Shown here: in pieces, positions 57,744 to 58,248 of the stretch
Layout: every line of letters begins with the position of its first letter
Position numbering within the stretch: position 1 is the first letter of the stretch
Source of the DNA: an uncultured Clostridia bacterium
GTDB lineage: Bacteria > Bacillota > Clostridia > TANB77 > CAG-508
Assembly: GCA_944391965.1 (NCBI GenBank)
Contig: CALXVH010000003.1
Location: forward strand, 22,551-86,550
Direction of reading: 5' to 3'
DNA length: 64,000 nucleotides
The notes under the pieces: model-generated
The model's input: the letters and a program-made list of their open reading frames with translations, nothing else
Database searches by the model: none
Told to the model about the DNA's origin: nothing
Translations under genes and position numbers: made by a program

Positions 57744-58109
57744 TTATATTCCCCAAACTTTTTCTAATTGTATGTTATCTTTCCATTCCCAGCCTTCTAA
57801 ATCACAACATTGAAATTTTACTTTGTTGTCTGAAGTTATTGTAATAGCAAATGTTGCATAATAAGTCTTTAATGCTGAATTAAGACGAAAAAACTGTTTT
57901 TCGTCTGTTACAGATACAACTACTGTTGTTTCCTCTTCTCCTTCATTCCACTTCCTCACACGACAAATAAAGAAATTATAATCTGATACATTTCCACCTA
58001 AATATGCACTTACTTCTTCGCCTTCGTTAGAACCGTGAAGTCCACCAGCAAAAAGTTCGTGTTTATTCTCTACTCTTTTCTTTAATTTTAAAATTAGAGG
58101 TTCGCTCAT
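57744..58109 (-). CDS. phage hypothetical protein sharing the N-terminal motif MSEPxILKLKK
   Basis: 121 aa with RBS GGAGGTGAG, preceded by the (CT)19 leader. Confidence 0.65.
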   Translation of the reverse strand: MSEPLILKLKKRVENKHELFAGGLHGSNEGEEVSAYLGGNVSDYNFFICRVRKWNEGEEETTVVVSVTDEKQFFRLNSALKTYYATFAITITSDNKVKFQCCDLEGWEWKDNIQLEKVWGI

Positions 58110-58137
58110 TAGAACTCACCTCCTATTTTTATATTAT

Positions 58138-58224
58138 TTAAAGAGTAGCTCTCTCTCTCTCTCTCTCTCTCTCTCTCTCTCTCTCTACAGTACCAACGGT
58201 TTTAAAATTTACTATTCTTTTCAT
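58138..58224 (-). CDS. 28-codon leader ORF reading through the dinucleotide repeat
   Basis: ATG 58224 follows AAGGAAG. The product is MKRIVNFKTVGTV(ER)6ATL and the stop is TAA at 58138-58140. Confidence 0.35.
   Translation of the reverse strand: MKRIVNFKTVGTVERERERERERERATL
58149..58186. repeat. perfect (CT)19 microsatellite
   Basis: Read directly from the sequence: 38 nt with no interruption. Confidence 0.98.
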
Positions 58225-58248
58225 ATTTACATCTTCCTTTCTTTTAAT

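Follow-up and report, generated by a model that had tools for sequence, protein, structure and literature searches.

We analysed a stretch of 64,000 nt from an uncultured Clostridia bacterium (contig CALXVH010000003.1 of assembly GCA_944391965.1; the whole stretch is called the window here, and position 1 is its first letter), in which a long dinucleotide repeat lies between two small genes that follow a collagen-like tail fibre gene of a prophage. We consider it likely that this is a contingency (phase-variation) locus of the phage that works by frame-dependent translational coupling. The repeat is contained in a short leader open reading frame (ORF), and its length probably controls the opening by ribosomes of a hairpin that covers the start of the next gene, which encodes a putative fibre head of 121 amino acids (aa). 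An initial annotation of this DNA had proposed a candidate phase-variable switch acting through slipped-strand mispairing and coupling, and the proposal is supported by the length polymorphism of the repeat, by the conserved layout of the reading frames and by the hairpin at the downstream start. With some hesitation we also lean towards the view that the locus represents an undescribed class of phage switch, in which a dinucleotide repeat in an upstream mini-ORF gates hairpin-locked fibre-head cassettes, with some abundant human-gut Clostridium prophages having two such switches in series that vary independently. The elements of the locus are the following.

58249-58740, minus strand: first 'head' cassette, 163 aa, starting MSEPEILKLKK; it overlaps the end of the fibre gene and has neither leader nor repeat
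58233-58240, minus strand: Shine-Dalgarno (SD)-like element AAAGGAAG of the leader, 8 nt upstream of the leader ATG; the same element stands before the leader of every relative
58138-58224, minus strand: leader ORF of 28 codons with 19 repeat units, MKRIVNFKTVGTV(ER)6ATL*; the layout is the same in all relatives, where the peptides differ and the frame is open
58149-58186, minus strand: hypermutable dinucleotide tract (AG)19; homologous tracts in relatives differ in length with identical flanks
58110-58148, minus strand: post-repeat 'frame filter', with TAA at -31 and -27 in two frames and the third frame open through the SD to TAATG
58070-58148, minus strand: predicted mRNA structure burying the start of the 121-aa gene, with its core hairpin at 58086-58131
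57744-58109, minus strand: second 'head' cassette, 121 aa, starting MSEPLILKLKK, the one proposed to be controlled by the switch

The repeat is perfect, reading (CT)19 on the plus strand and (AG)19 on the coding strand. It had been described as the only long simple repeat of the 64 kb, and so it proved: the next-longest dinucleotide tract is (AT)5, no other tract of di- to hexanucleotide units is comparable, and (CT)6 has 14 overlapping matches in the window (G+C content 28.5%) against 0.01 expected from dinucleotide-preserving shuffles. An uninterrupted tract of short units is what a simple-sequence-repeat contingency locus is expected to contain, and it has 19 units here and 5-19 in relatives. 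Stutter readily occurs at dinucleotide tracts, where short-read contigs also break, so that an error of sequencing or assembly has to be considered; however, the tract recurs at the identical site in dozens of independent assemblies from four sources (ENA, Logan, IMG/VR and NCBI), with lineage-specific flanks, which argues that it is not an assembly artefact and makes this explanation extremely improbable.

On the coding strand the 163-aa ORF ends with TAA (58251-58249) and is followed by AAAGGAAG (58240-58233) and then by the leader ATG at 58224, from which the frame runs through the repeat to a stop codon at 58140-58138. We recomputed the leader translation for numbers of repeat units (n) from 10 to 28, and the three frame outcomes previously predicted for a leader preceded by a ribosome-binding site (RBS) were all recovered; the leader itself had been described correctly, while the gap between its stop and the next ATG is 28 nt and not 29 as had been given. 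When n mod 3 is 1, as in the window, the leader ends in ...ATL* and its stop starts 31 nt before the downstream ATG; when n mod 3 is 2, it ends in ...ELLFK* with the stop at -27. When n is divisible by three, the leader continues through the downstream SD as ...SYSLNNIKIGGEF*, and its TAA overlaps the ATG at 58109 (TAATG). The overlap with the downstream start that is expected of translational coupling is thus present in one frame of three only, in each of the four junction types described below; the window allele, having n=19, is in another frame. A tract inside the leader ORF, with the frame behind it varying with n, gives the length-dependent change of frame typical of contingency loci, and the architecture of overlap and hairpin suggests that the leader frame acts on the downstream gene. 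A minimal ATG-TAA start-stop also occurs on the minus strand at 58227-58232, between the leader SD and the leader ATG; ATGTAA is found in several relatives as well (in L002 and in the second cassette of L033), too near the SD to be an obvious start.

Relatives were gathered from the contigs of homologues of the 121-aa protein, of which there are 21 among 5.8 billion proteins, and by protein-family and junction-DNA scans of viral, metagenome and genome collections; L-numbers denote the relative loci or contigs recovered. Megablast of 56900-60900 against GenBank phage records gave no match, a protein-pattern scan of representative bacterial genomes found no relative of the 121-aa family, and the exact junction 22-mer matched only once, in a metagenome-assembled genome of an uncultured Clostridium. 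L028 was discarded as a GC-rich chance match to the (AG) pattern.

Every recovered locus has a dinucleotide tract at the same site, in an RBS-preceded leader upstream of the gene. The repeat unit is AG or AC depending on the lineage, with the three-frame layout kept, and about 27 distinct alleles were counted in independent assemblies, the (AG) tracts having 6, 9, 10, 11, 14, 18 or 19 units and the (AC) tracts 5, 7, 9, 10, 11, 12, 14, 15, 16 or 18. The peptides encoded before the tract are dissimilar (MKRIVNFKTVGTV, MMNLESLGAV, MKNAENPCSC, MEKAVTLGAV, MKKMLKRKTVDTL and others), and in all the leaders of relatives RBS and ATG are retained and the frame leading into the tract is open. Behind the tract there are four junction types distinct in sequence, namely one AC type, AG type 1 (that of the window) and two variants of AG type 2; in each of them the stops of two frames lie 21-37 nt ahead of the downstream ATG, and the third frame is open through the SD and ends in TAATG (-2), in ATGA (+1) or with an 8-nt overlap (+5). 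An RBS and an ATG that always open a frame through the tract, and four junctions that close precisely two frames and let the remaining one run to a start-overlapping stop, would be left unexplained if the tract were a frame-independent rheostat, that is, an unstructured purine-rich or CA-rich spacer or ribosome standby site whose length tunes downstream translation. We think this unlikely, even if (AG)n and (AC)n are both predicted to be unstructured, the length of the tract ranges as widely as 5-19 units, and there are reports that translation in E. coli is stimulated by CA-rich sequences.

The length of the tract varies on identical or nearly identical backgrounds, as the following pairs of loci illustrate.

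L010 and L014: no flank differences in 1200 nt; n=10 and n=16
L025 and L026: no flank differences in 1200 nt; n=16 and n=15
L008 and L002: 2 flank differences in 1200 nt; n=14 and n=16
The window and L007: 6 flank differences in 1071 nt; n=19 and n=11
The window and L029: 99.9-100% identity over 6.4 kb, with an identical 121-aa protein; n=19 and n=18

With 0-6 flank differences per ~1.1-1.2 kb, n differs by 1-8 units, which is the polymorphism expected of a contingency locus; the initial annotation had made its proposal depend on the repeat length not being invariant in related phages, and it is not. The prophage of L029, with (AG)18, is in the read-through frame, and its gene caller annotated a 37-aa leader overlapping the downstream start.

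The tract is also never lost, because searches with the post-repeat box gave the same 12 viral contigs whether or not the repeat was required. Across ~302 kb of these loci together with the window, all AC or AG tracts of at least 5 units lie inside such leaders, with the exception of one (AG)5. Long dinucleotide tracts that are otherwise absent from these genomes and nevertheless kept here in every relative, with two different repeat units, are difficult to reconcile with a neutral hypermutable passenger, or with a recombination junction in which the tract is the seam of head-cassette exchange and hairpin and overlap serve constitutive coupling. Cassettes are clearly shuffled among leaders and backbones, and the frame states of the 27 distinct alleles are roughly uniform (10 overlapping, 11 stopping at about -27 and 6 with an early stop), as such an origin would predict; yet constitutive coupling would be broken in two thirds of the natural alleles, and the conserved stops in the two other frames would have no purpose under neutrality. 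We therefore give this possibility a low probability.

The start of the 121-aa gene is predicted to be buried in an mRNA structure that begins where the repeat ends and reaches codon 13 of this gene, a feature that the initial annotation had not noticed and that strengthens the idea of coupling. In its core the SD GGAGGU (58123-58118) pairs with ACCUCU (58101-58096, codons 3-5), an apical stem GUUC/GAGC puts the AUG at the loop, and AAAAU pairs with AUUUU; an outer stem of 9 bp joins 58148-58140 to 58078-58070. The full structure has a predicted energy of -26.9 kcal/mol, against -9.0 +/- 2.4 for shuffles (z -7.4), and the 46-nt core (58086-58131) one of -16.5 kcal/mol (z -6.4). The start of the 163-aa cassette is unstructured, folding no better than shuffles (z +0.88). 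Among the relatives, the hairpin is found at 13 of 13 distinct starts preceded by a repeat, with a pairing probability of the SD of 0.74-0.78 and a minimum free energy (MFE) of -17 to -27, and at none of the five distinct first cassettes without a repeat (MFE -1 to -5). The occluded start expected of translational coupling is therefore stable, conserved and absent in repeat-less cassettes.

When 12 distinct sequences were aligned, 99.4% of the cells were paired, against 36-63% with slid partners, and the variation was compatible with wobble pairing. Three double compensatory changes occur (GUUC:GAGC to AGAC:GUCU); since all three come from the single most diverged sequence, the covariation that the alignment suggests is real but thin. 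A control is provided by codon use. Loci L037-L043 have a single head gene and no repeat, and they encode the N-terminal peptide MSEPLILTLKK with AGT GAA CCA TTG; their start region forms no such hairpin (-2.3 kcal/mol, z +1.0). For the N-terminal codons the repeat cassettes have AGC GAR CCT CTA, although AGC makes up only 8% of Ser codons and CTA plus CTT 24% of Leu codons in the genome studied here. Conversely, a downstream gene with another N-terminus (MIPLQK, Pfam Gp10_C) keeps a 10-bp stem, AAGAGGUGUC:GAUACCUCUU, with the AGAGGU:ACCUCU pairing and an ATGA overlap at its start. From these two cases we conclude that, where the repeat leader is present, the RNA structure and not the peptide alone is under selection.

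Hairpins of this stability at a start site are strongly inhibitory to translation, hence the expectation that the 121-aa gene is off or low in the two short frames. The same hairpin might instead be a terminator, with a leader ribosome preventing termination and the repeat number controlling downstream transcription; AAUUUUAA follows the stem, and leader-controlled attenuators are well known. The U-run, however, pairs with AAAAU within the modelled structure, and the SD, the AUG and the overlapping stop lie exactly inside the hairpin, which points to translational control. Termination would moreover silence the holin and endolysin genes that lie downstream on the same strand, a costly outcome that translational control avoids. 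A consensus scan found neither a promoter-like nor a terminator-like site on the coding strand at the locus, so that a role of the tract as promoter spacer or of the locus as terminator was rejected. Attenuation of transcription is thus in our opinion quite improbable.

Frame-dependent translational coupling could operate as follows. Slipped-strand mispairing during replication of the prophage or phage DNA would add units to (AG)19 or remove them. On the late mRNA the leader would be translated from its own ribosome-binding site, and the number of repeats would set the frame in which translation continues behind the tract. Two of the frames would end 27-31 nt before the 121-aa gene, the hairpin would stay closed and the gene would be off or low. 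In the third frame, which in this phage requires n divisible by 3, the ribosome would read through the 5' arm of the hairpin and end on UAAUG; the start would unfold, re-initiation would follow and the gene would be on. The window allele, with n=19, would accordingly be off; the loss of one unit (the state of L029) or the gain of two would switch it on. The 121-aa head has an N-terminal helix in common with the product of the upstream head gene, presumably expressed constitutively, and a population of lysogens would likely release virions with or without the alternative fibre head, a form of bet-hedging on host recognition. We regard the tract, its polymorphism, the frame logic and the hairpin with its compensatory changes as shown, and infer that the leader is translated, that the overlapping frame is the on state and that lengths change quickly inside a population. 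The case for function is built on the retention of the tract, the frame filter, the hairpin and the strict co-occurrence of these.

Concerning the proteins, the genes on both sides of the repeat had been called fibre-associated, and our analysis agrees, since the module consists of a collagen-like tail fibre followed by two small proteins, each modelled with a helix plus a beta-sandwich head. Similarity between the 163-aa and the 121-aa protein is limited to the first ~11 residues (MSEPEILKLKK and MSEPLILKLKK); BLASTP between them is not significant, and paralogy was rejected. No family scored above threshold in Pfam and PHROG scans of these two proteins and four further cassette proteins, and a sequence search of the PDB with the 163-aa protein found nothing. 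Confident AlphaFold2 models (predicted local distance difference test, pLDDT, of 86 for the 121-aa and 88 for the 163-aa protein) have in both cases an N-terminal helix followed by a beta-sandwich. The 121-aa model is best matched by baseplate chains of phi812 and by the C-terminal domains of gp144 from phage K (E 4e-4 to 8e-4, template-modelling (TM) score 0.51-0.57), and it also matches models of viral tail fibres; according to a published paper, gp144 is the receptor-binding protein of phage K. The 163-aa model is a C1q/TNF-like jelly roll, whose best PDB match is the knob of the phi812 central spike (E 7e-8, TM 0.69); further matches, to E 6e-6 and TM 0.6-0.7, are C1q domains, a domain of a cyanophage short tail fibre and the heads of Bacillus ExsFA, BxpB and BclA. 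These Bacillus heads cap collagen-like filaments, and the modelled C1q-like fold of the 163-aa protein suits a gene that follows a collagen-like fibre. By their models the cassette proteins would thus belong among the receptor-binding or fibre head folds of phages.

Across the relatives there are at least five unrelated head families (121/128, 130, 153, 158-163 and 152 aa), having in common the N-terminal helix or, at the minimum, the anti-SD codons. A repeat is never present at the head gene that comes first after the fibre and always at additional ones; simple relatives possess the first head gene only. This arrangement suggests that the heads may compete for one docking site and that the switch may alter the composition of the virion. 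The cassettes have been shuffled, in that one leader type precedes differing downstream genes and differing backbones carry the device. We also observed a 151-aa variant (L036, 4001-4456; P0012, P0014, P0016 and P0019), with a beta-sandwich head of the 121-aa type behind another N-terminus of 45 residues (MAIELDRIGWEDAPSEQTPID...). This variant belongs to a different phage backbone, where it comes immediately behind a 1128-aa protein and has neither leader nor repeat nor hairpin; it suggests that the head domain is a movable module.

Two candidate switches in series were found in other prophages. The 163-aa family has 84 homologues (cluster representatives), some of them assigned to Clostridium sp. 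CAG:354 or Caudoviricetes, and a 161-aa member annotated in Clostridium sp. CAG:354 is present on 646 contigs. In the prophage of the CAG:354 type (L033-L035 and L021) the 161-aa gene has an (AC)n leader in front of it and the gene that comes next, a 152-aa Gp10_C gene, has an (AG)n leader, the serial tracts lying at about 637-660 and 1244-1265 in L033; L001 has two leaders in series as well. Three assemblies with an identical 161-aa protein have AC12/AG11, AC10/AG9 and AC10/AG10, from which it follows that the two tracts vary independently. If these are switches, one lysogen lineage could release virions with several head combinations.

Several points weigh against this interpretation of the locus. 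Translation of the leader, repression by the hairpin and re-initiation are predicted, and the near-uniform frame states are also those of a neutral tract, fitting a free-running switch and neutrality alike. The strong downstream SD (GGAGGUGA, GGAGGTGA) may allow some translation independent of the hairpin, which would make the device a dimmer rather than a strict on/off switch, and a ribosome stopping at -27 may transiently open part of the stem, giving an intermediate state. The tract lengths were read from consensus assemblies, of which many are metagenomic; one-unit differences could partly be due to stutter or to choices made during assembly, while those of 6-8 units cannot. Contig ends within the tract were rejected as a sign of heterogeneity within samples, being explained by k-mer length. 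As for the heads, the matches to receptor-binding folds reach TM scores of 0.5-0.7 only, with no assignment to a sequence family, and a role as chaperone or cap is possible.

In the short-read contigs L003-L006, L031 and L032 the end falls within the tract, after 13-17 units. The device interrupts assemblies systematically, and metagenomes will underestimate its frequency.

The remainder of the window gives the context of the locus. Positions 1 to ~55 kb are host chromosome, and at its right end the window covers the tail and lysis part of a prophage, which continues beyond it. A plus-strand T-box leader (23736-23941; Rfam, 112.7 bits), upstream of a 427-aa ORF (24303-25586), is an ordinary host feature and confirms the left part of the window as chromosome; no tRNA genes were found in the host part. 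The genes around the locus, in the direction of transcription, are as follows.

60831-63956, minus strand: 1041-aa protein
60459-60803, minus strand: 114-aa protein, phrog_1084
58752-60458, minus strand: collagen-like tail fibre gene, 568 aa (Pfam Collagen, E 3e-31; PHROG tail and tail-fibre families), the upstream anchor of the module
57509-57730 and 57231-57521, minus strand: two small membrane proteins, 73 and 96 aa
57035-57229, minus strand: Dp-1-type holin
56176-56916, minus strand: amidase endolysin

Just after the endolysin gene, on the coding strand, there is a 15-bp inverted repeat with a 6-nt loop (56133-56168), which is probably a terminator closing the late operon at the end of the prophage. 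The fibre gene contains a 198-bp tandem duplication (59905-60289, 98% identical), a second length polymorphism of the module: in the 99.9%-identical prophage of L029 the fibre has one 198-bp unit fewer (502 against 568 aa). An exact look-up of the 568-aa fibre protein showed that it is not on record. Just beyond the lysis end of the prophage lies a 261-aa ORF with an IS200-like Y1 transposase domain (54481-55266, minus strand; Pfam E 1e-7); L029, too, has this gene after its prophage. The window contains 11 copies of a GC-rich motif, GGGAYNTYCC (mostly GGGACGTTCC), where 0.43 are expected, in clusters at 2015-2084, 38054-38092 and 43661-43722 and singly at 7148, 23619, 25601, 32222, 51429 and 53992. 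It sits in inter-ORF gaps of the AT-rich host region, locally in tandem units of 20-21 bp, and looks like a dispersed element of the repetitive extragenic palindromic (REP) kind; given this motif, the transposase could be of the REP-associated type.

Repeat-driven phase variation is a textbook strategy of bacterial pathogens. In phages it has been reported only recently, in the form of homopolymer tracts that break a coding sequence. If our reading is true, this locus is a purpose-built regulatory version, in which the protein stays intact and a reversible, heritable change in DNA length is read by a leader ribosome, and the device is conserved across several backbones of human-gut Clostridia phages, placed before modular fibre-head genes. 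Temperate gut phages could then diversify their host range without mutating the binding protein, which is directly testable. There are practical consequences as well, because the leaders escape gene callers, the tract interrupts short-read assemblies, and the on or off state of a fibre-head gene would not be readable from the gene alone. Leader, repeat, frame filter and locked start are together compact enough to be reused as a stochastic switch.

It is useful to compare the locus with known systems. Simple-sequence-repeat contingency loci of bacteria include the CT repeats in the 5' part of the reading frames for Helicobacter outer-membrane proteins and the pentamers of Neisseria opa. The resemblance lies in a slippage-driven change of length that shifts the frame, in alleles that differ on identical backgrounds and in the association with surface or recognition genes; here, in contrast, the tract is in a separate upstream mini-ORF, its proposed effect passes through a hairpin opened by the ribosome, and the bearer is a phage of Gram-positive gut Clostridia. 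The downstream half of the device recalls translation attenuation of the ermC type and the lysis gene of MS2, which is reached by ribosomes terminating out of frame. In these systems, too, a stem-loop closes the downstream SD and AUG and the position at which an upstream ribosome stops decides translation; their trigger is drug-induced stalling or a rare frameshift, whereas here it would be a heritable and reversible change in DNA length.

Phages are also known to switch tropism by inversion (Gin and the G segment of Mu, Cin of P1) or by diversity-generating retroelements (Bordetella phage BPP-1). The presumed purpose, virions with alternative receptor-binding parts from one genome, is the same, but the mechanism is unrelated. 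Neither a recombinase nor a reverse transcriptase was found in the visible part of the prophage, the rest of which lies outside the window, and an invertible fibre segment or shufflon was rejected, as 56000-61000 contains only short, imperfect, AT-rich inverted matches and no recombinase is among the annotated neighbours.

Closest in kind are the repeats described in phages themselves. Receptor-binding protein genes of Campylobacter phages have hypermutable polyG tracts (Sorensen et al. 2021, Cell Rep 35:109214), and, going by the account of that work in PMC10877375, the two cases have in common a phage-encoded repeat and phase-variable expression in a host-recognition module. The polyG tract, as presented there, is a homopolymer inside the coding sequence and truncates the protein, while ours is a dinucleotide tract in a leader ORF that leaves the protein untouched and would exert control by coupling; the 121-aa gene itself contains no long tract. 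In coliphages, contingency loci of short homopolymers (at least 6 bp) have been described in coding genes of many classes and are under-represented in tail-fibre genes (Gomez, Barrick and Waters, bioRxiv 2025, PMC12633550). That preprint, too, proposes phage bet-hedging by polymerase slippage at simple repeats; unlike the present locus, it makes no mention of dinucleotide tracts, leader ORFs or coupling. Full-text literature searches turned up no account of a phage gene that is controlled through a repeat in a leader ORF, and the combination of slippage with a leader-opened start, placed before modular fibre heads in phages of gut Clostridia, appears to be new.

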